Positions 12,337-22,886 of a stretch of DNA of 64,000 bases are shown in pieces. The translations under genes and the position numbers were made by a program. Position 1 is the first letter of the stretch, and each line of letters opens with the position of its first letter. Source of the stretch: Escherichia phage vB_EcoM_G2133; the sequence record MK327928.1. One strand, written 5' to 3'. Below the pieces are notes generated by a model that was not told the DNA's origin, did no database searches, and worked only from the letters and a program-made list of their open reading frames with translations.

Positions 12337-12814
12337 AGAAGTTTCTATTCCTAAAATGGGTCTTAAACATTATAACATTTTAAAGGATGTTAAAGGTCCT
12401 GATGAAAATTTAAAACTTCTTATTGATTCTATTTGTCCGAATTTATCACCGGCAGAAGTTGATTTCGTTTCTATTCATTTATTGGAATTTAATGGAAAGA
12501 TTAAATCTCGTAAAGAAATAGATGGCTATACTTATGACATTAATGATGTCTATGTATGCCAAAGATTGGAATTTCAATACCAAGGAAATACATTTTATTT
12601 TAGACCTCCTGGAAAATTTGAACAATTTTTAACGGTGAGCGATATGTTATCTAAATGCTTGCTTAAGGTCAACGATGAAGTTAAAGAAATTAATTTTCTT
12701 GAGATGCCAGCATTCGTTTTAAAATGGGCAAATGATATTTTTACAACTTTAGCAATTCCTGGCCCTAATGGTCCAATAACTGGAATTGGCAATATTATTG
12801 GATTATTTGAATGA
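12281..12814 (+). CDS. 28: Baseplate hub distal protein gp28
   Basis: 177 aa; overlaps gp27 3' end. Confidence 0.8.
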
Positions 12815-14583
12815 AAAAGCCACAAGAAATGCAAACGATGCGTAGAAAAGTTATTTCAGATAATAAACCAACACAGGAAGCGGCTAAATCCGCTTCCAAC
12901 ACTTTATCTGGACTTAATGATATATCTACGAAATTGGATGATGCTCAAGCTGCTTCTGAATTAATAGCTCAAACTGTCGAAGAAAAATCGAATGAAATAG
13001 TTGGAGCAATTGGTAACGTAGAAAGCGCAGTGAGTGATACTACTGCCGGTTCTGAGTTAATTGCCGAGACTGTTGAAATTGGCAATAATATCAATAAAGA
13101 AATAGGCGAATCACTCGGAAGTAAATTAGATAAATTAACAAGTTTACTAGAGCAAAAAATTCAGACAGCTGGAATTCAACAGACTGGAACTAGTTTAGCC
13201 ACAGTTGAAAGCGCTATTCCTGTTAAAGTCGTTGAGGATGATACTGCTGAATCTGTGGGTCCTTTATTACCGGCCCCTGAAGCAGTTAATAATGATCCTG
13301 ACGCTGATTTTTTCCCTACCCCTCAGCCAGTTGAACCCAAACAAGAATCGCCAGAAGAAAAACAGAAAAAAGAAGCATTTAACTTAAAATTATCTCAAGC
13401 TTTAGATAAATTAACGAAGACTGTTGATTTTGGATTTAAAAAATCCATTTCAATTACTGATAAAATATCAAGCATGTTATTTAAGTACACCATCAGTGCT
13501 GCTATTGAAGCTGCTAAAATGACTGCAATGATATTGGCTGTTGTTGTTGGAATAGACCTGTTGATGGTTCATTTTAAATACTGGTCAGATAAATTTTCAA
13601 AAGCCTGGGATTTATTTAATACTGACTTTACTAAATTCTCTAGCGAAACCGGAACATGGGGTCCTTTATTACAGAGCATCTTTGATTCTATTGATAAAAT
13701 TAAACAACTTTGGGAAGCGGGAGATTGGGGTGGATTGACAGCAGCTATTGTTGAAGGACTCGGAAGTGTTCTTTTTAATTTAGGTGAACTTATTCAATTA
13801 GGTATGGCTAAATTATCTGCAGCAATTCTTCGAGTCATTCCTGGTATGAAGGATACTGCTGATGAAGTAGAAGGAAGAGCATTAGAAAATTTCCAAAATT
13901 CTACTGGAGCATCTCTCAATAAAGAAGACCAGGAAAAAGTTGCAAATTATCAAGATAAACGAATGAACGGAGACCTTGGTCCGATAGCAAAAGGATTAGA
14001 TAAAATTGCTAATTGGAAAACTCGTGCATCTAATTGGATTCGTGGGGTTGATAATAAAGAAGCACTAACTACCGACGAAGAACGTGCAGCAGAAGAAGAA
14101 AAATTAAAGCAACTTTCACCTGAAGAAAGAAAAAATGCTTTAATGAAGGCTAATGAAGCCCGTGCCGCAATGATTCGCTTTGAAAAATATGCTGATTCAG
14201 CTGATATGAGTAAAGACTCAACGGTTAAATCTGTTGAATCTGCCTATGAAGACCTTAAAAAACGGATGGATGACCCGGATTTAAATAATTCACCGGCAGT
14301 TAAAAAAGAACTTGCTGCTAGATTTTCTAAAATTGATGCTACTTATCAAGAGCTCAAGAAAAATCAGCCTAATGCCAAACCTGAAACTTCTGCTAAATCG
14401 CCAGAAGCAAAACAAGTCCAGGTAATAGAAAAGAACAAAGCACAGCAAGCTCCTGTTCAACAAGCATCTCCTTCAATCAATAATACTAATAATGTTATTA
14501 AGAAAAATACTGTCGTTCATAATATGACACCTGTCACAAGCACAACTGCTCCTGGTGTATTTGATGCGACTGGGGTTAATTAA
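12811..14583 (+). CDS. 29: Baseplate hub / tail length determinator gp29
   Basis: 590 aa, coiled-coil rich. Confidence 0.85.
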   Translation: MKKPQEMQTMRRKVISDNKPTQEAAKSASNTLSGLNDISTKLDDAQAASELIAQTVEEKSNEIVGAIGNVESAVSDTTAGSELIAETVEIGNNINKEIGESLGSKLDKLTSLLEQKIQTAGIQQTGTSLATVESAIPVKVVEDDTAESVGPLLPAPEAVNNDPDADFFPTPQPVEPKQESPEEKQKKEAFNLKLSQALDKLTKTVDFGFKKSISITDKISSMLFKYTISAAIEAAKMTAMILAVVVGIDLLMVHFKYWSDKFSKAWDLFNTDFTKFSSETGTWGPLLQSIFDSIDKIKQLWEAGDWGGLTAAIVEGLGSVLFNLGELIQLGMAKLSAAILRVIPGMKDTADEVEGRALENFQNSTGASLNKEDQEKVANYQDKRMNGDLGPIAKGLDKIANWKTRASNWIRGVDNKEALTTDEERAAEEEKLKQLSPEERKNALMKANEARAAMIRFEKYADSADMSKDSTVKSVESAYEDLKKRMDDPDLNNSPAVKKELAARFSKIDATYQELKKNQPNAKPETSAKSPEAKQVQVIEKNKAQQAPVQQASPSINNTNNVIKKNTVVHNMTPVTSTTAPGVFDATGVN

Positions 14584-14591
14584 GGAATAAT

Positions 14592-15686
14592 ATGGCAATT
14601 GTTAAAGAAATAACTGCTGATTTAATTAAAAAGTCCGGTGAGAAAATTTCAGCCGGACAGAGTACTAAATCAGAAGTAGGAACTAAAACATACACAGCCC
14701 AGTTTCCAACTGGGCGTGCTAGTGGTAATGACACTACAGGGGACTTCCAGGTAACAGATCTATATAAGAATGGATTATTATTTACTGCATACAATATGTC
14801 ATCTAGGGATTCTGGAAGTCTTAGATCGATGAGATCTAACTACTCTTCTTCATCTTCGAGTATTTTACGTACAGCCAGAAACACTATCAGTAATACAGTA
14901 TCAAAACTGTCAAATGGATTAATATCAGATAATAATTCAGGAACAATAAGTAAAGCCCCTGTTGCAAATATTCTTTTACCAAGATCTAAATCCGATGTTG
15001 ATACATCATCACATAGATTTAATGATGTTCAAGAAAGTCTTATCAGCAGAGGCGGAGGTACTGCTACTGGTGTGCTAAGTAATATTGCTTCAACTGCAGT
15101 ATTTGGAGCACTGGAAAGTATAACACAAGGTATAATGGCTGATAATAATGAACAAATATACACTACGGCTCGAAGTATGTATGGTGGTGCTGAAAATAGA
15201 ACTAAAGTGTTTACTTGGGATTTGACTCCACGTTCAACAGAAGATTTAATGGCTATTATTAATATCTATCAATATTTTAACTATTTTTCTTATGGTGAAA
15301 CTGGTAAATCTCAATATGCTGCTGAAATAAAGGGGTATTTAGATGATTGGTATCGTTCTACGTTAATTGAACCTTTATCTCCGGAAGACGCAGCTAAAAA
15401 TAAAACACTATTTGAGAAAATGACATCGAGTTTAACTAACGTTCTAGTAGTTTCAAACCCGACAATTTGGATGGTGAAAAACTTTGGTGCAACATCTAAG
15501 TTTGATGGAAAAACGGAAATATTTGGCCCATGCCAAATACAAAGCATCAGATTTGATAAAACACCTAATGGTAACTTTAACGGATTAGCTATTGCTCCAA
15601 ACCTCCCTAGTACATTTACTCTTGAGATTACTATGAGAGAAATTATCACGTTAAACCGTGCTTCTTTATATGCGGGGACTTTTTAA
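14592..15686 (+). CDS. 48: Baseplate-tail tube junction protein gp48
   Basis: 364 aa. Confidence 0.85.
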   Translation: MAIVKEITADLIKKSGEKISAGQSTKSEVGTKTYTAQFPTGRASGNDTTGDFQVTDLYKNGLLFTAYNMSSRDSGSLRSMRSNYSSSSSSILRTARNTISNTVSKLSNGLISDNNSGTISKAPVANILLPRSKSDVDTSSHRFNDVQESLISRGGGTATGVLSNIASTAVFGALESITQGIMADNNEQIYTTARSMYGGAENRTKVFTWDLTPRSTEDLMAIINIYQYFNYFSYGETGKSQYAAEIKGYLDDWYRSTLIEPLSPEDAAKNKTLFEKMTSSLTNVLVVSNPTIWMVKNFGATSKFDGKTEIFGPCQIQSIRFDKTPNGNFNGLAIAPNLPSTFTLEITMREIITLNRASLYAGTF

Positions 15687-16651
15687 TGTATTCTTTAGAG
15701 GAATTTAATAATCAAGCAATAAACGCAGATTTCCAACGTAATAATATGTTTAGCTGCGTTTTTGCGACAACTCCATCAACTAAAAGCTCTTCGTTGATAA
15801 GTTCAATTAGCAACTTTTCTTATAATAACTTGGGCCTAAATTCAGATTGGTTAGGATTGACTCAAGGTGATATTAATCAGGGAATTACCACGCTAATTAC
15901 TGCTGGCACACAAAAACTGATAAGAAAATCAGGGGTTAGTAAATATCTTATTGGTGCCATGAGTCAACGTACAGTTCAAAGTTTATTAGGCTCATTTACA
16001 GTTGGTACATATTTAATTGACTTCTTTAACATGGCATATAACTCATCTGGATTGATGATATACTCTGTAAAAATGCCAGAGAATAGATTATCCTATGAAA
16101 CTGACTGGAACTACAATTCTCCTAATATTCGCATAACCGGGAGAGAATTAGACCCTTTGGTTATTTCATTTAGAATGGATTCAGAAGCTTGTAACTATCG
16201 TGCAATGCAAGACTGGGTTAACTCCGTTCAAGACCCAGTAACTGGATTACGCGCTTTGCCACAGGATGTCGAGGCAGATATTCAGGTTAATCTTCATTCT
16301 CGTAATGGATTGCCTCATACTGCGGTGATGTTCACTGGATGCATTCCAATATCAGTGAGCGCTCCTGAGTTATCATATGATGGAGATAACCAAATAACTA
16401 CATTTGACGTTACTTTTGCGTATAGAGTGATGCAGGCTGGAGCAGTTGATAGGCAAGCTGCGCTTGAATGGCTTGAATCTGCTGCTATAAATGGTATTCA
16501 AAGCGTTCTCGGAAATAGTGGAGGTGTTACTGGACTATCTAATTCGCTTTCACGACTCAGTAGATTAGGGGGAACTGCAGGAAGCATTTCAAACATTAAT
16601 ACTATGACAGGAATTGTCAATTCGCAAAGTAAAATATTAGGAGCAATATAA
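15686..16651 (+). CDS. 54: Baseplate-tail tube initiator gp54
   Basis: 321 aa. Confidence 0.85.
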   Translation: MYSLEEFNNQAINADFQRNNMFSCVFATTPSTKSSSLISSISNFSYNNLGLNSDWLGLTQGDINQGITTLITAGTQKLIRKSGVSKYLIGAMSQRTVQSLLGSFTVGTYLIDFFNMAYNSSGLMIYSVKMPENRLSYETDWNYNSPNIRITGRELDPLVISFRMDSEACNYRAMQDWVNSVQDPVTGLRALPQDVEADIQVNLHSRNGLPHTAVMFTGCIPISVSAPELSYDGDNQITTFDVTFAYRVMQAGAVDRQAALEWLESAAINGIQSVLGNSGGVTGLSNSLSRLSRLGGTAGSISNINTMTGIVNSQSKILGAI

Positions 16652-16656
16652 CAATG

Positions 16657-16674
16657 GGGACCTTTCGGTCCCCA
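16657..16674. terminator. Bidirectional hairpin ggggaccTTTCggtcccc between gp54 and convergent alt.-3
   Basis: 7-bp GC stem, T-run following. Confidence 0.65.
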
Positions 16675-16679
16675 TATTT

Positions 16680-16970
16680 TTATTTACGGAATGAAATAAA
16701 AGCAGCAACTGAAGCAACTAAACTGTCTTCAATATAAACCTCAATTTTTACCGGAGCTTCTGACTCAAATTTACCTGTTACTACACCTTGGAAAATACTT
16801 TCAGTCTGTTCTGGCTTTGAAAAATTTTCAGAAGGAAAAATTCCGAACTTTTTATCTGTTCCAAAAATTTTGATAAATTCATCGTAAACTGCTTCATTAA
16901 AAGCATTATCAGCAGGAATAACGCCTTCAACTACAAGTTCTTGACCTAAAAAGCGCAAAGAAGATTTCAT
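16680..16970 (-). CDS. Hypothetical protein (alt.-3-like position)
   Basis: 96-aa ORF. Confidence 0.5.
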   Translation of the reverse strand: MKSSLRFLGQELVVEGVIPADNAFNEAVYDEFIKIFGTDKKFGIFPSENFSKPEQTESIFQGVVTGKFESEAPVKIEVYIEDSLVASVAAFISFRK

Positions 16971-16982
16971 TTTGTGTTCCTC

Positions 16983-17030
16983 ATGTTATGCCAGTAAGAC
17001 TACTATAACACAACACGAGGGACTTGTAAA
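16983..17030 (-). promoter_or_regulatory. Putative T4 early promoter (minus-strand GTTTACA -35, TATAGT-like -10)
   Basis: Minus strand reads gtagtttacaagtccctcgtgttgtgttatagtagtc; near-identical copy at 32163-32216. Confidence 0.45.
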
Positions 17031-19088
17031 CTACATTTTGAACTTTTTAGACATTCCGTTGATGTTAACCAAAGAAGCCAAGATTTGAGAAACTTCGTTT
17101 TCCTCTTCTTTTGATTCTTCTACAAGGAATTGATTAAATCCAGCCATTGGACGAACTTCACCAGTTTCCATTAGATGGTCGCCATCATATACCGATTCCT
17201 CTAATTGTTCAGAAGGAGGAACGATTGTACCTTCTATTAGATACTTGTTATAAGCAGTTTCTTTCATAAAGTACGTACTTACTTTATTAATCTTCAGTAA
17301 AATTCCGCGCGGTAGAATAACTTCAGCTTCTGATGGAAATCCTGATAAATGACCTGGAACGATAACTTTGATTCGCTCAGCTCCTTTAATTACCATACCC
17401 ACGCTAGTTTCAGCATCTTCATTAGCATATGTAGAATGACTACCCATATGCATCAAATCTTCTGCATCAACGGAACCTTCTCCTTCACCAGAAAATACTG
17501 CGCCGGAATCATCTAGAGCCATATAGTTTTTACCATGCTCACCGAAGATATTTGGTTTAAGCGATGTGGATACGAAGTTCTTGAAATAGAACATTTTATT
17601 TTCAATGTTATGACGCAAAGTTTTAAAGGTAACTTCTTGCCCACGATAAAGAGTAGTTCCTGGAGGAAGAACAGAACCTTTAGCAAATGCAGAATCCAAC
17701 GTCTCGATGTGTTTAATAGCTCGTTCCATATATTCTTCACGGGTAGAATCAGGTTTACCTAAAAGGAACGAGTTCATTTCAACATATGAATCTGCACAAT
17801 AATCTTCAATTACATCAGATTCAGCTTGAGTTAATCCTTTTGGAGTTACTTCGGTGCTTGCGTATTCATATGCCTGAGCGGCAGATTCATTAATCAATTT
17901 ATAAATGCCATTCATTACAAATTGAATAATAGCTGTCTTTTCATCTGGCGTAGCTTTAGAACCTTTAACCAAATCATTGATAATTTTCTTAATAACATCA
18001 AAGCTATTAGAAATATTAATGTCAGCAAGATCGCTTAAAATTTTATCAGTTTTATAATCAAAGAATTCTTTATTCTTTAAATATTCTTGAGAACCTTGAT
18101 ATGTTATATCGCTCTGCAACTTGATAGATGGATCACGTAAACGTGCATGGGCTAATGCAATATGATTTCGGAAGTTTTCTAGTTCGTAATCGCTAGATTT
18201 AAAACGAGAAGCACTTCTCATACCACCAATAGCTCCTTTGCTGAAGTTTGAACCAATCTGAATAACGCCAGAGTTCATTGGTCCTTCTGCTTTATACACC
18301 GGAACTTTAAATTCAAACTCTTGATATTTCTTAGCAGCGAAGCTATCACCCTGAAGTGAAGCATCGACAGTAGAATATTGAGCTTGTGCTGCTAATCGAC
18401 GACTAATTTTAGTTTTCTGAATAACAGCTTGATCAGTGCGCTTATCATTTTCTAAAGCAATAGAAGCAGCAACAGCGACAGCTTTAGGAACAGCATTACC
18501 TGTTTTAACGTCTACATAAACATCACCAACCTTTGATTCAACTTTTGTGAATAACTCAGTTGAAATAGGAGGTACACCTGGAATGTCTTCTAAATTGGCA
18601 TTTTTACGGTAAACCATAATATATGCATATTTCTTATCAAAGTCCCAGATTTCCTTTAAAAGAACATATCGACCTGCTCCTTTAGTACGTACTAAACGGT
18701 CAGCAATAACTTGCATTTGACGAGCAGCGCCATTTGTTTTACTCTTTAGTACGCGAAATAAGCATGCATCAATTTTATACTGTTTCATTGTTTGAAGAGC
18801 AGTATCAAAAACAGCATTAATGACGCCAATTGGATTTCCACCCAAGTTTTTAAGCTTAACTAACGATAATTTCTCGTTGACACCTATCATTACGATATGC
18901 ATCATTTTATCGCCTGGCTTAACGTTTTTATTCGTATCACCGCCAGAGGTGTATGTACAAAATCTAAATCCAGGAAGCACGCTTTCTTCACCGGCTTGAA
19001 TAGCAAAAATTTGTGGTATTTTATGCTTAGGATTTAAGTTAACAACCGGCGCCGAAGCGCCGTCAAATAATTCTGTAATAAGTTCCAT
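17031..19088 (-). CDS. Alt-family ADP-ribosyltransferase paralogue (internal head protein)
   Basis: 685 aa; N-terminus MELITELFD… shared with the adjacent paralogue; C-terminal ART-like elements YRGQ…FVSTSL…SEAEVILPRG. Confidence 0.75.
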   Translation of the reverse strand: MELITELFDGASAPVVNLNPKHKIPQIFAIQAGEESVLPGFRFCTYTSGGDTNKNVKPGDKMMHIVMIGVNEKLSLVKLKNLGGNPIGVINAVFDTALQTMKQYKIDACLFRVLKSKTNGAARQMQVIADRLVRTKGAGRYVLLKEIWDFDKKYAYIMVYRKNANLEDIPGVPPISTELFTKVESKVGDVYVDVKTGNAVPKAVAVAASIALENDKRTDQAVIQKTKISRRLAAQAQYSTVDASLQGDSFAAKKYQEFEFKVPVYKAEGPMNSGVIQIGSNFSKGAIGGMRSASRFKSSDYELENFRNHIALAHARLRDPSIKLQSDITYQGSQEYLKNKEFFDYKTDKILSDLADINISNSFDVIKKIINDLVKGSKATPDEKTAIIQFVMNGIYKLINESAAQAYEYASTEVTPKGLTQAESDVIEDYCADSYVEMNSFLLGKPDSTREEYMERAIKHIETLDSAFAKGSVLPPGTTLYRGQEVTFKTLRHNIENKMFYFKNFVSTSLKPNIFGEHGKNYMALDDSGAVFSGEGEGSVDAEDLMHMGSHSTYANEDAETSVGMVIKGAERIKVIVPGHLSGFPSEAEVILPRGILLKINKVSTYFMKETAYNKYLIEGTIVPPSEQLEESVYDGDHLMETGEVRPMAGFNQFLVEESKEEENEVSQILASLVNINGMSKKFKM

Positions 19089-19091
19089 GAT

Positions 19092-21188
19092 TTATCCTTG
19101 AACGAACTTGTAAGGCATGTTTGTAATATCTATGCAAGACGCAATAATTCCAAGAGATGATTCTACTTTCTGTTTAACGTTTGATGAAACAAATGATGCA
19201 AAGTCAACTCTGTCTTCTATTTCAATATCACCTGTCATTGCAACCAATTCACCAGTTTCCATTAAATGGTCTCCATCATAGATTACCGATTCGGTGAGCT
19301 CTTCCGTGGTCATAACTTCAGCTTGAATGAGTTTTGTATTATTAGATGTTGTTCCGTCATTATTAGAAGCATCAGTTATTTTATTAACTTTGACCATCAA
19401 TCCACGCGGTAGAATAACTTCAGCTTCTGTTGCTATTCCGAGACTTCCTGGATATACAACATTAACTTTATGAGCTCCATCAATTGCCCATCCTATTTGA
19501 ACTTTAACGTATTCAGGATTTTCTTTATACGCTCTTATTTCGTTTGGATTAATAGTTATTCCTTCTTCATTTTTATCAACTGTTAATTCATTGCGAGCTT
19601 CTGGTTCTAAAAGACCAATACCAGCATGTGTAATTCCAAAACGTCCAAAAATGATAGGAGTTAAAGAAGTAGATACAAAATTTCTGAAGTAGAACACTTT
19701 ATTTTTAACTAACGCTTCATATATAGGAGCAGTCATACTTTGAGCACGATAAACTGTAATGCCTTCTGGTATACGGTCACCATTTTCAAAAGCTGAATCT
19801 AAGTTATTTATAGCAGATTCAATTTCTTTTTCACTCATTACATCATATCGTTCTGGATTGTAACGACCTAAAAGAAGATTATTGATGTCAGTATATCCTG
19901 AACCGCAATATTCTCTAATGCCACGCTTTTGTGATGGAGTATATTTAGAACCATCGCGGGCAATAGTAATATCAATCATTGGACCAGCACCAATTCCAGA
20001 AAAACTGTAAATCATTCGTTTGAGGAATTTAGTTTTTGCTGCGTTCCAGGAATTTTTAGTTATTTCTTCCCAGACTTCATCTGGTTGTCCTTTACGATTT
20101 TTATTATGATTAGCAAGCCATTTATCTTTATAATCTTCAAAGAATTGATTTACAGCTGCTGCGTATTTCTCTAAACATTTTATTGAAGTAGTTGGTTCAT
20201 TTTTAATTGCATTAAAAATTACTTCTTTAATTTTTTCTGAAACTTCACCGACTTGACTCATTGGAAAGAATTTATAATCATAGTGAAGTTCATCTGCCGT
20301 TCCTTCAGCAATAATTTTTGCTGCCTTTGTTTTAGAAGCTAATGAATTAATTCCAATTTTCATTTCTTCTGCTTCGGGAATTAAAGGAGCGGTAGCAGGT
20401 TTATTGAAATTAGCTGCGGTAGATTCATACTTCTGGAATAATTCACTTTCAAATCTAGAAGATTCCAACGACTGACTTTGCGCAATTGCTCTACGTGAAA
20501 TTTTAACTTTAACGATTACCGCTTGGTCAGAACGTTTATCATTTTCTTGCGCAATAGATGCTGCAATTGCCTCATTTTTAGTTACTTGGGCTCCAGTATC
20601 TTTATTGATATAAACATCACCGACTTTCGATTCAACTTTAGTAAAGAGCTCGGTACTAATTTCCGGAACTCCTGGAATGTCTTCTAATGATACATTTTTG
20701 CGATGTATAAGAATATATGCATACTTTTTATCATAATCCCAGAGTTCCTTAAGAAGGACGTATCTGCCACCTGAACGACTACGGATAAGTCTATCAGCAA
20801 TAAGTTGAATTTGACGAGCTTGACCAGCAGTTTTAGACTTAAGAATACGGAGCATACATGCATCAATTTTATACTGACGCATCGTCTGCATCGCAACAGT
20901 AAAAACTGAATTGATGTAATTAATTGGGCTTGGACCGAGACCCTTTAATTTAGCAATTGAACCTTTAGCAGTTAATGTAAAAGGAACAATATGCATCATT
21001 TTATCGCCCATTTTTAAATCGCGATTAGTATCACCTCCAGATGTATAGGTACATAAACGAAAACCTGGTTGTTCAATTGCGTCATCAACATGAACTGAAA
21101 AAATTTGCGGTATTTTCTTCTTTGGATTTAAGTTTGTAATCGGAAGAGTAGTATCTTCGTCAAATAATTCTGTAATGAGTTCCATCAT
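19092..21188 (-). CDS. alt: Alt ADP-ribosyltransferase (packaged, modifies host RNA polymerase)
   Basis: 698 aa; MMELITELFDEDTTLPITNL…; C-terminal YRAQ…FVSTSL…TEAEVILPRG; adjacent to gene 30. Confidence 0.8.
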   Translation of the reverse strand: MMELITELFDEDTTLPITNLNPKKKIPQIFSVHVDDAIEQPGFRLCTYTSGGDTNRDLKMGDKMMHIVPFTLTAKGSIAKLKGLGPSPINYINSVFTVAMQTMRQYKIDACMLRILKSKTAGQARQIQLIADRLIRSRSGGRYVLLKELWDYDKKYAYILIHRKNVSLEDIPGVPEISTELFTKVESKVGDVYINKDTGAQVTKNEAIAASIAQENDKRSDQAVIVKVKISRRAIAQSQSLESSRFESELFQKYESTAANFNKPATAPLIPEAEEMKIGINSLASKTKAAKIIAEGTADELHYDYKFFPMSQVGEVSEKIKEVIFNAIKNEPTTSIKCLEKYAAAVNQFFEDYKDKWLANHNKNRKGQPDEVWEEITKNSWNAAKTKFLKRMIYSFSGIGAGPMIDITIARDGSKYTPSQKRGIREYCGSGYTDINNLLLGRYNPERYDVMSEKEIESAINNLDSAFENGDRIPEGITVYRAQSMTAPIYEALVKNKVFYFRNFVSTSLTPIIFGRFGITHAGIGLLEPEARNELTVDKNEEGITINPNEIRAYKENPEYVKVQIGWAIDGAHKVNVVYPGSLGIATEAEVILPRGLMVKVNKITDASNNDGTTSNNTKLIQAEVMTTEELTESVIYDGDHLMETGELVAMTGDIEIEDRVDFASFVSSNVKQKVESSLGIIASCIDITNMPYKFVQG

Positions 21189-21208: not shown

Positions 21209-21216
21209 TATTTATA
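21209..21216 (-). promoter_or_regulatory. Late promoter TATAAATA (minus strand) upstream of alt
   Basis: Plus tatttata 21 nt upstream of alt start. Confidence 0.55.
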
Positions 21217-21224
21217 AAATTAAA

Positions 21225-21236
21225 GGCCCGAAGGCC
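21225..21236 (-). terminator. Hairpin ggcccGAAggcc
   Basis: GC stem right after stop of ORF 21238..21426. Confidence 0.5.
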
Positions 21237-21237
21237 T

Positions 21238-21426
21238 TTAATAATCTATTGGTAAGAGAGTACGATATATTTCAAACTTTGGACCTTTTTCATAGGTATC
21301 AAATGTTTCTGTGAATTTATTATAAGCATATGCATCTATAAATTCAATCATAATTTGTGATACAGAAGTAGAAACATCTCCACCTTCTTTTTGAGCCACG
21401 ACAATTGTTTCTAAGTAAGCTTTCAT
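21238..21426 (-). CDS. Hypothetical small protein
   Basis: 62-aa ORF overlapping gp30 stop (ATGA). Confidence 0.5.
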   Translation of the reverse strand: MKAYLETIVVAQKEGGDVSTSVSQIMIEFIDAYAYNKFTETFDTYEKGPKFEIYRTLLPIDY

Positions 21427-22886
21427 AGACCAGTTACCTCATGAAAATCACCAAATACATCCTCGAATGTATTAGCTTTAGTTTTATCTTCACGCAAACG
21501 AATCGCAATCGGAAGAAATAATTTAACGTAATCAGTGCGGCCATCAGATTTTAACCAACCGTTGCATTCGCACTCTAGAATTTTTCCAATATAATAATTT
21601 TGGTTTTCCATAATGCGAGTACGGTCAAGTTCATGCGATTTTACACCGGCTTTATCTTTTAAGCCTGAACCAGCATTTACTTTAATTTTTCCACACTCTG
21701 ATTCAAGAATGAAACCACCTGCTTTAGTAGGGTCTTTACGGTGAGGATAAATTCCTACAATTTTTAAATCAACATCAATTACTTCTTTAAATTTATAAAG
21801 ATTTTTTGAACGAGCATTTTCCCATAATCCATCGATATTTTTGAGAATAATACCTTCAAGACCTTGGTCAATATACTTTTTGTAAATTACCTTAGCTTCA
21901 TCTAGGTTATTTACTACTTGGTTTTCAATTAAAATTACTTTATCATAGCCTGATGTCATTTGTTCTAGTTTAGAAAAACGTACATCATATTTTAAACGAA
22001 ATGCTGGAAGACCATATATTTCTACTAATGGAACATAATCCCAGACCTGAAACTTCATGCATTGTGCTTCTTTTTCAGAAATGGTTCCCTTTAAAGATTT
22101 ATTGGCGATGCCATTAGATGCAGTACGTGATTCAGCTACTTCGGCGAATTCTTTAGCTTTACTAATTTCAGGATAAGCATCAAAAAGAAAATCTAGGCCT
22201 TCTGGTTCCTTTTCAACTTGCTCATGGTATACCAATTCGCCATCAATTAACACACCTTCTGGATGAATCTGGCGGGCTTCAGCAGTCATTTTGATTAACT
22301 CTTCCTTAAGAAGATCTAATCCTAGATATTCATTGCCAGCTCGTGATAAAAGACGAACATCATCTAATTCATCACCTCTGACTTCGGCAAAGCACCGAGC
22401 TCCATCAGCTTTTAACTGGGCAAAGGCTGGAAATTTGATATTCTTATTAATGCCTTTTTCATCATAAGAACTTGCAAGCATTTGAGGTTGTTCAGGAATT
22501 AAACCTGGCCAAACTTTGTTCGCAATAGATACTGAAGCGCCACATTCAAGGTCTCGCATCATCACTCGACGCAAAACTTCAACATCATCTTTTTTACCAT
22601 CGGTGATGTATCCAATTAATTCCTCAATCGCCGCATTTCCAGTCAATTTCCGAGTAGCTAACGTGAATTCAATGAAGTCAAGCATATCGGTAAGAGTCAA
22701 CATTCCAAAACTCTGGGTAGCAATACCAGGTTTAGGCCATTTCTTGATATAATACTGTAACCCACGAGAATAAGTCAGACGATATACTCGTTTAAGCAAT
22801 TCATTATCTTTATTCTTTTCAAGAATTGCTTGCTTCTGCTTAGTTGAACCAATAGATGCTATTTCGTTCAGAATTTTAAGAATCAT
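21423..22886 (-). CDS. 30: ATP-dependent DNA ligase gp30
   Basis: 487 aa; adenylation lysine motif KADGARC. Confidence 0.9.
   Translation of the reverse strand: MILKILNEIASIGSTKQKQAILEKNKDNELLKRVYRLTYSRGLQYYIKKWPKPGIATQSFGMLTLTDMLDFIEFTLATRKLTGNAAIEELIGYITDGKKDDVEVLRRVMMRDLECGASVSIANKVWPGLIPEQPQMLASSYDEKGINKNIKFPAFAQLKADGARCFAEVRGDELDDVRLLSRAGNEYLGLDLLKEELIKMTAEARQIHPEGVLIDGELVYHEQVEKEPEGLDFLFDAYPEISKAKEFAEVAESRTASNGIANKSLKGTISEKEAQCMKFQVWDYVPLVEIYGLPAFRLKYDVRFSKLEQMTSGYDKVILIENQVVNNLDEAKVIYKKYIDQGLEGIILKNIDGLWENARSKNLYKFKEVIDVDLKIVGIYPHRKDPTKAGGFILESECGKIKVNAGSGLKDKAGVKSHELDRTRIMENQNYYIGKILECECNGWLKSDGRTDYVKLFLPIAIRLREDKTKANTFEDVFGDFHEVTGL

Follow-up and report, generated by a model that had tools for sequence, protein, structure and literature searches.

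Adjacent alt and alt2 genes of a T-even phage encode predicted ADP-ribosyltransferases with a common N-terminal domain and diverged central and catalytic modules

Alt of phage T4 is an effector of host takeover and anti-defense, for which the term "toxin" is used loosely. Nearly all that is known about Alt function stems from this single T4 allele, which ADP-ribosylates Arg265 of the RNA polymerase α subunit and other host proteins (PMC5512222). T4 Alt is cleaved by the prohead protease gp21 at two sites, ITE-6, which has been mapped by mass spectrometry, and LTE-619 (PMC5694885). In most T-even phages, two adjacent alt genes are the norm and have already been annotated, and a pair such as the one described here is known, correctly annotated in public records, and ordinary as a find in a genome scan.

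The alt/alt2 pair and its relatives

The DNA studied here is a 64,000-nucleotide stretch of Escherichia phage vB_EcoM_G2133 (MK327928.1), referred to as the window. As reported in a preliminary description made from the sequence, it holds two adjacent minus-strand open reading frames (ORFs) of 698 and 685 aa, namely, alt (19092..21188; product AltA) and alt2 (17031..19088; product AltB, a second Alt paralogue). Both proteins had been said to start with MELITELFD. This is true of AltB, but the 698-aa ORF begins with MMELITELFD at its first ATG; the T4 annotation uses the second ATG (at 21185), giving MELITELFD and a protein of 697 aa.

The pairwise alignment that had been proposed as a check gave 41% identity overall (BLASTP, E = 2e-161), a similarity that we judge to be far beyond chance. 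The N-terminal block common to both proteins, previously put at about 200 aa, was found again but is larger, with ~235 aa at ~68% identity. The divergence noted beyond it was borne out, with only 4% identity in the center (residues 236 to 415), 35% in the ADP-ribosyltransferase (ART) domain, and 46% in the C-terminal tail. Direct DNA repeats with a spacing of 2,091 to 2,097 nt confirm a tandem duplication.

The pair occupies the same locus as T4 alt (NP_049811), between alt.1/gene 30 and alt.-3/gene 54. Full-length identity to T4 Alt was 71% for AltA and 41% for AltB, and the late promoter motif, the R-S-E motifs, and the ITE/LTE gp21 sites (LEE in AltB) are alike. For AltA, the N-terminal 240 aa (97 to 100% identity) and the last ~100 aa (residues 601 to 697; 87 to 94%) closely resemble T4 Alt, whereas residues 241 to 600 are merely 17 to 72% identical, which points to another allele of the center and ART module. 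By position and by both termini, AltA is the T4 alt orthologue, carrying a center/catalytic cassette of another type.

Whether T4 itself has a second Alt-sized gene had been left uncertain in the preliminary description. It does not, and only the remnant alt.-1/alt.-2 is found there. At the nucleotide level, this remnant is ~95% identical to AltB over the first ~350 nt of the latter, and the T4 alt.-1/alt.-2 families phrog_23015 and phrog_15247 matched AltB more strongly than AltA. Relative to alt2, T4 has a 1-nt deletion, causing a frameshift, and a 1,699-bp deletion with its junction in a CTAAA(G/A)AGT microhomology. The match to AltB, together with the two deletions, identifies alt.-1/alt.-2 as the decayed remnant of a full-length Alt2. 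We rejected the reading given in the T4 record, in which the beginning of alt itself was duplicated, because the ~95% match to AltB lies far above that to alt and because alt.-1/alt.-2 contain the stop-proximal sequence of AltB. T4, the model phage, is atypical at this locus. The majority of T-even phages, T2 among them, have two Alt-type enzymes that they inject or, at the least, encode.

The "ADP-ribosyltransferase Alt2" named in GenBank records of BASEL phages (e.g., bas37_0032, QXV82013) and, in T2 and RB18, the second "Alt-like RNA polymerase ADP-ribosyltransferase" are 99% identical to AltB, have the same position and length, and are the same gene with no substantive difference. The preliminary description had considered that both copies might be already characterized genes with the same target; the pair is indeed annotated as Alt and Alt2, but only the Alt side has been characterized. 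T2 and RB18 carry both genes intact, and 401 phage records match the Alt2-specific part at 95% identity or more. In comparisons of the window, RB18, and T2, dN/dS was 0.025 to 0.037 for Alt2 and 0.017 to 0.092 for Alt, and both genes are under strong purifying selection. Together, the 401 records and the low dN/dS ruled out that Alt2 is a pseudogene.

Catalytic motifs, processing sites, and expression signals

Assignment of both proteins to the Alt-family ARTs, as made in the preliminary description, agreed with matches to Pfam PF03496 (ADPrib_exo_Tox) of 71.8 bits for AltB and 129.9 bits for AltA, both above the gathering cutoff of 23.4 bits (E-values for the two proteins, 6e-20 and 1e-37). 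Matches to the "Alt-like" phrog_802 (3e-256 and 1e-273) spanned residues 1 to 685 and 1 to 697. We located the motifs YRAQ/YRGQ, FVSTSL, and TEAEVILPRG/SEAEVILPRG listed earlier, and neither copy lacks the catalytic Arg or Glu. In AltA, the homologue alignment placed Arg481 (YRAQ; 19746..19748, minus strand, aligned to YRRS of CDTa) and S506-T507-S508 (19665..19673, minus strand), and a HMMER alignment to the E-x-E of CDTa (GEYE) placed E588-A-E590 in the ARTT loop (19419..19427, minus strand). The counterparts in AltB, also on the minus strand, are Arg482 (YRGQ; 17643..17645) and S507-T508-S509 (17562..17570), from the homologue alignment, and E587-A-E589 (17322..17330), from alignment with AltA. 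The Arg, S-x-S, and E-x-E residues were invariant across 20 diverged homologues, and the Thr of S-T-S nearly so. Three residues ahead of the first ExE Glu, AltB has an aromatic residue (Phe584), as do iota Ia and C3; this position is Ile in AltA and Pro in T4 Alt.

AltA and AltB are predicted R-S-E ADP-ribosyltransferases of the Alt family in which the Arg, S-T-S, and E-x-E motifs are all intact, and both display the ART fold of R-S-E mono-ADP-ribosyltransferases. Within this class, the ExE form of the [Q/E]-x-E ARTT motif denotes arginine specificity. The structural models were of moderate confidence (mean pLDDT of 72 to 74), with a shallow 20-sequence alignment behind them. In sequence searches against solved structures, AltB had no match and AltA nothing better than weak CDTa/iota matches, and NCBIfam had a model for neither protein. 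Vis, iota Ia, CDTa, VIP2, and C3 share the ART fold and the Arg, S-T-S, and ExE motifs with AltA and AltB, but their identity to the Alt proteins is just 15 to 26%. Compared to C3-like and binary toxins, the Alt proteins have an additional ~235-aa N-terminal domain, a helical center, an insert of ~40 residues that separates S-T-S from ExE, and a C-terminal tail that can be cleaved off, and the family is delivered by phage head ejection rather than by secretion or a pore.

In AltB, the insert is an acidic, low-confidence segment (residues 514 to 555; 17424..17549, minus strand) and the least conserved stretch of the ART domain. The N-terminal α/β domain (residues 7 to 235; 18384..19070, minus strand; pI 9.7), which is the part 68% identical to AltA, is presumably a head-core or packaging module. 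The central helical region (residues 236 to 415; 17844..18383, minus strand), so different from that of AltA, is 48% identical to the third alt copy of the Dhakavirus AnYang.

Both proteins carry MELITE at the motif level, i.e., an N-terminal propeptide with the ITE-6 motif, encoded on the minus strand at 21168..21176 in AltA (I-T-E, ITE-6 in T4 Alt; PMC5694885) and, by motif match, at 19071..19079 in AltB (I-T-E, residues 4 to 6). Near the C terminus, AltA has L-T-E (19290..19298, minus strand) in a context identical to that of the LTE-619 gp21 site of T4 Alt (PMC5694885), and the aligned residues 629 to 631 of AltB are L-E-E (17196..17204, minus strand), which differs from LTE but, as a motif, obeys the L/I-x-E rule. 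For mature T4 Alt, we recomputed a mass of 68.2 kDa, the same as the published figure (PMC5694885), and mature AltB would comprise residues 7 to 631 with a mass of 69.2 kDa. Retention of ITE-6 and of a C-terminal L-x-E makes head packaging of both proteins plausible, and AltB is probably cleaved at LEE. A literature search yielded neither virion proteomics nor enzymology nor target data on Alt2: the name "Alt2" returned no papers, queries for a second alt gene or two alt genes returned only irrelevant ones, and phage-characterization papers held no virion evidence for the Alt/Alt2 pair.

A T4-type late promoter motif, TATAAATA (21209..21216, minus strand), is situated 20 nt ahead of the first alt ATG and is the only one placed to drive both genes. 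The motif occurs 12 times in the window, with 9.3 occurrences expected, so the promoter argument rests on position and not on count. Another copy lies within AltA (19805-19812), as may happen with a motif at chance frequency. Directly after the alt.1 stop codon and before the late promoter, we read a stem-loop, AAAGGCC-TTCG-GGCCTTT (21222..21239, minus strand), from the sequence; it was absent from the terminator scan output. The ATG of AltB lies 3 nt past the AltA stop codon, with an AAGGA ribosome-binding site (19095..19099, minus strand) within the final AltA codons and no promoter of its own. Given the 3-nt gap, we infer that alt2 is cotranscribed with alt, and the shared promoter would make its expression late. 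An early-type promoter-like site, TTTACA-17-TATAGT with TG (17002..17030, minus strand), follows the AltB stop codon upstream of the conserved neighbor alt.-3 (16680..16970, minus strand; 96 aa, DUF5498) and is also kept in T4, downstream of alt.-2. The leftward alt transcription unit closes at a bidirectional stem-loop terminator (16654..16675), which the terminator scan identified between alt.-3 and gene 54. Rfam returned no RNA family in the whole window.

Fitness data and the proposed roles of Alt and Alt2

Alt and Alt2 of Bas37 are 98% and 99% identical, respectively, to the proteins in the window. In Bas37 transposon sequencing (Tn-seq) under the defense system Mokosh type I, Alt insertions fell from 213.1 to 0.0 (log2FC −7.74, adjusted p = 0), and Alt2 insertions rose from 41.6 to 105.3 (log2FC +1.32, adjusted p = 0), showing that Alt is required and loss of Alt2 favored under this system. 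With isolate CFE331, the log2FC was −1.56 for Alt, and Alt2 was unchanged. The reference library classed Alt as "Non-essential" and Alt2 as "Intermediate" (116/164 TA sites hit), where the low number of alt2 insertions could also arise because truncated products are harmful, without Alt2 being needed. The Alt2 fitness signature in these published data went undiscussed by its authors. Alt variants, too, already differ in defeating Mokosh type I, since T4 Alt complements against it and Bas37 Alt, 98% identical to AltA, does not (HIDEN-SEQ preprint).

We consider it probable that Alt and Alt2 are distinct Alt-family members, i.e., late, packaged, gp21-trimmed, and injected arginine-specific ARTs with different substrates. 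Our analysis contributes gene structure, homology, catalytic and processing motifs, selection, synteny, distribution, and modular mosaicism to this view, and others' work on near-identical proteins supplies the opposite effects on fitness under Mokosh type I; for Alt2, packaging, cleavage, activity, and the identity of its targets are inferred. Both genes would most likely be expressed late from the single promoter, with translation of Alt2 coupled to that of Alt. The common N-terminal propeptide and basic N-terminal domain would take both proteins into the prohead core, where gp21 would trim them at I-T-E and L-x-E to mature proteins of ~69 to 70 kDa. Both would then enter the host with the DNA and mono-ADP-ribosylate host proteins at arginine (ExE type). 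As the centers and catalytic modules are different cassettes, different substrates, and hence no redundancy, would be expected. Against this view, T4 is fully viable on laboratory hosts despite its loss of Alt2.

The two copies could instead be redundant, modifying the same targets (e.g., RNA polymerase α Arg265) with duplication raising the dose of injected enzyme, and one copy does suffice for T4, while the ExE arginine-type motif and the N-terminal module are common to AltA and AltB. We find this improbable given how little the centers and ART domains share (4% and 35% identity). Moreover, the two lineages coexist across genera, with AnYang copy 1 resembling AltA and copy 3 AltB, and the opposite Tn-seq phenotypes argue that Alt and Alt2 are not redundant: an intact Alt2 did not rescue alt insertion mutants, although a transposon in alt may have polar effects on alt2.

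Just as improbable, in our estimate, is that Alt2 is expressed but not injected, acting late in the producing cell or having a mainly structural or regulatory function within the head core, such as limiting Alt packaging. Enrichment of alt2 insertions under Mokosh, where Alt is needed, would fit an Alt2 that holds packaging sites, and the "Intermediate" class and the lack of proteomic evidence in the literature search agree with such a role. However, both gp21 motifs are kept, strong purifying selection extends over the entire ART domain, and conservation of the invariant R-S-E residues in Alt2 argues against a purely structural function. A further reading, in which the downstream copy is a duplicate now decaying toward the T4 state, is effectively refuted. 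T4 proves that alt2 can be lost, but the window, RB18, T2, and Bas37 all have an intact 685-aa ORF, dN/dS is ~0.03, and ~400 records are at least 95% identical.

What our analysis adds to the known pair is its modular build, in which effector cassettes common across genera are attached to an N-terminal domain specific to the phage. The ART domain of the window Alt is 94% identical at the protein level, and 89 to 95% at the DNA level, to that of a Dhakavirus copy whose N-terminal domain is just ~46 to 49% identical to the one in the window. More tentatively, and with the odds somewhat against it, the Tevenvirinae alt locus may be an expandable array of one to three polymorphic injected effectors, in which phage-specific head-targeting N-terminal domains are combined with center/ART cassettes moving between genera and paralogues compete for limited packaging sites. 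Such competition would explain the gain of Bas37 from Alt2 loss under Mokosh, and array composition would then decide which host defenses are neutralized. Once identified, the proteins modified by Alt2 and by the non-T4 Alt cassette would widen the catalogue of host proteins disabled at DNA entry. A conserved delivery module with exchangeable effectors is also seen in T4 IPI-IPIII and in bacterial polymorphic toxins, and the IPI-IPIII loci (a capsid-targeting sequence with variable cargo), like alt, differ among related genomes (PMC9026906). In contrast to these systems, all Alt cassettes so far are ARTs of the same family, with no unrelated fold, and the conserved module of Alt is a large folded domain that is retained in the mature protein.

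Layout and divergence of the two Alt genes

The window comes from a T4-like phage (Tequatrovirus); gene calls, profile matches and comparison with T4 placed the rightward genes 29, 48 and 54 at 12811-16651. Leftward, on the minus strand, lie alt.-3 (16680-16970; 96 aa, DUF5498), directly downstream of Alt2, AltB (the paralogue Alt2; 17031-19088, 685 aa), AltA (19092-21188, 698 aa), alt.1 (21238-21426; 62 aa, Pfam "Phage blade protein" PF24647, 5e-29) and the leftward DNA ligase gene 30 (21423-22886). The preliminary description of two Alt-family paralogues side by side was correct, since AltA and AltB were 41% identical in pairwise protein comparison (E = 2e-161), both exceeded the gathering score of Pfam ADPrib_exo_Tox and matched the PHROG family "Alt-like RNA polymerase ADP-ribosyltransferase" end to end, and direct DNA repeats spaced 2,091-2,097 nt across the pair bear the mark of tandem duplication. 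An Rfam scan of the whole 64-kb window (1-64000) returned no family at gathering score.

Identity between the paralogues was 68% in the N-terminal domain, 4% in the centre, 35% in the ADP-ribosyltransferase (ART) domain and 46% in the tail, bearing out the reported divergence of the central and C-terminal regions. The shared N-terminal block, previously put at about 200 aa, measures about 235 aa at 68% identity, and the opening MELITELFD, ascribed to both ORFs, holds for the 685-aa one, the 698-aa ORF having one extra Met in front. AlphaFold models (mean pLDDT 71.7 and 73.5) begin with an N-terminal alpha/beta domain that ends near residue 195; a helical centre (about 200-470), the ART domain (about 475-625) and a poorly ordered C-terminal tail follow. 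A precomputed Pfam match, PF26846, which probably covers the Alt N-terminal domain, was present on all full-length homologues (among P0001-P0120) and missing from two shorter ones, P0008 and P0010; our local Pfam copy does not report it.

The ART-like elements noted at both C-termini proved intact. Across 20 aligned, diverged homologues, no substitution occurred at the catalytic Arg, the two serines of S-T-S or the two glutamates of E-x-E, which correspond to R481, S506/S508 and E588/E590 in AltA and to R482, S507/S509 and E587/E589 in AltB; HMMER aligned AltA YRAQ to YRRS and TEAEV to GEYEV of CDTa. The least conserved ART element was the insert between S-T-S and E-x-E (about 7% identity; AltA residues 521-560), which the AltB model shows as disordered (residues 514-555). 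At position -3 from the first catalytic Glu, AltB has Phe, aromatic like its counterparts in iota Ia and C3; the residue there is Ile in AltA and Pro in T4 Alt. Since this insert and the -3 position set substrate choice in related toxins, it is plausible that AltA and AltB act on different targets.

Packaging signals and the remnant in T4

Mass spectrometry has placed two cuts by gp21, the prohead protease, in T4 Alt, behind ITE-6 and LTE-619, which leave a mature protein of 68.2 kDa (PMC5694885; PMC9026906); our recomputed mass for residues 7-619 was also 68.2 kDa. AltA keeps both motifs in a context identical to T4 Alt, and in AltB ITE-6 is retained and the position aligned to the T4 C-terminal site reads LEE, predicting a mature protein of 69.2 kDa. 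A motif scan placed the late-promoter motif TATAAATA 20 nt upstream of AltA on the minus strand. A second copy on that strand, at 19805-19812 inside the AltA coding sequence, may have no meaning, because the 12 copies in the window are about what chance predicts (9.3 expected). A GC-rich stem-loop (21222-21239) lies between alt.1 and the alt late promoter, AltB starts 3 nt past the AltA stop with an AAGGA site in front, an early-type promoter for alt.-3 comes after the end of AltB, and the alt unit finishes at a bidirectional terminator. From these signals we infer cleavage, packaging and co-transcription of AltB, and both proteins have the look of enzymes that are competent and packaged.

By position, AltA is the orthologue of T4 alt, with 71% overall identity distributed unevenly (97-100% for residues 1-240, 87-94% for 601-697 and just 17-72% for 241-600); AltB and T4 Alt share 41%. 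The preliminary description was unsure whether T4 has a second Alt-sized gene; it has no full-length one, and carries the small ORFs alt.-1 and alt.-2 instead. Comparing this T4 stretch (locus L001, NC_000866, 5066-5451) with 17031-19088 of the window, we found that it matches the opening ~350 nt of AltB at about 95% nucleotide identity and has lost two pieces: 1 nt, which shifts the frame, and 1,699 bp, with the junction inside CTAAA(G/A)AGT microhomology and AltB's last codons still present. The PHROG families derived from alt.-1 and alt.-2 matched AltB more strongly than AltA. Together, the alignment, deletions and PHROG matches indicate that T4 carries the wreck of a full-length Alt2 gene. 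The T4 record's own note sees in alt.-1/alt.-2 an ancient copy of the beginning of alt; we rejected this, as they match AltB at about 95%, far better than alt, and retain sequence from near the AltB stop.

Distribution and modularity of the alt locus

The tandem pair is real and very common, and its sequence points to a functional one. The whole 4.9-kb locus was found at ≥80% coverage in 343 phage records, the AltB-specific part (residues 236-685) at ≥95% identity in 401, and the window-type AltA centre plus ART in 309; the classical phages T2 and RB18 carry the intact pair as in the window. The pair is also already known, because both genes appear in RefSeq as "Alt-like RNA polymerase ADP-ribosyltransferase", they are called "ADP-ribosyltransferase Alt" and "ADP-ribosyltransferase Alt2" in BASEL records, paralogues adjoining alt in T4-like phages were noted by Nolan et al. 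2006 (PMC1524935), and a 2026 paper described a Tequatrovirus with "two paralogous Alt-like proteins" that are 43% identical, drawing the same inference as the preliminary description (PMC13600099). Common and annotated, the pair is of low interest as a scan finding; moderate interest remains in the uncharacterised Alt2, for which a literature search found no biochemical work, and in the cassette architecture.

Tevenvirinae carry one to three Alt-like genes at this locus, with three in tandem in Dhakavirus AnYang (locus L010, NC_055782, 660-6920) and two in Gaprivervirus SP18 (locus L009, 1873-5817). N-terminal domains are alike within one genome (68% identity for the window pair, 89% for AnYang copies 2 and 3) and less so between cross-genus counterparts (41-49%). 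In contrast, centre and ART modules inside one genome share just 4-35% identity, and resemble those of other genera: the AltA ART domain is 94% identical in protein to AnYang copy 1 (89-95% in DNA), AnYang copy 2 and SP18 altb share 77-87% across both modules, and AltB and AnYang copy 3 share 48-56%. As judged from these identities, the pattern would require that effector cassettes are swapped while the delivery domain stays specific to the phage, the same delivery-plus-cassette logic as in T4 internal proteins and polymorphic toxins. This modularity is our addition to the known pair.

Insertion phenotypes of Alt and Alt2 in Bas37

In the BASEL phage Bas37 (KarlGJung), Alt (bas37_0033) is 98% identical to AltA and Alt2 (bas37_0032) 99% identical to AltB. 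The HIDEN-SEQ preprint reported that alt is required against the host defence Mokosh type I, and that complementation in trans succeeds with T4 Alt and fails with Bas37 Alt (10.1101/2025.11.20.689424). Its Extended Data Table 7 holds values for Alt and Alt2 that its text does not discuss. In the reference library, 164/179 TA sites were hit in Alt ("Non-essential") and 116/164 in Alt2 ("Intermediate"). Between K-12 delta-RM and Mokosh type I, mean counts went from 213.1 to 0.0 for Alt (log2FC -7.74, adj. p = 0) and from 41.6 to 105.3 for Alt2 (log2FC +1.32, adj. p = 0), and neighbouring genes did not change; between K-12 and isolate CFE331, Alt had a log2FC of -1.56 and Alt2 was unchanged (10.1101/2025.11.20.689424).

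Because the phenotypes differ while the neighbours are unchanged, Alt and Alt2 are not interchangeable and not redundant, with the caveats that alt insertions are possibly polar on alt2 and that low alt2 counts possibly come from harmful truncated products. The earlier suggestion of two injected toxins with possibly different targets is partly supported, by this non-redundancy and by the apparent competence and packaging of both enzymes. We propose that paralogues with one common delivery module would compete for packaging sites, which could account for the rise in Alt2 insertions under a defence that makes Alt necessary.

C-terminal extensions of T4 Alt.-3 escape the CmdTAC defence (PMC11618068), and in the HIDEN-SEQ tables the first of the clinical-isolate comparisons shows depletion of insertions in the alt.-3 orthologue bas37_0031 (log2FC -2.70, adj. 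p 0.02; 10.1101/2025.11.20.689424).
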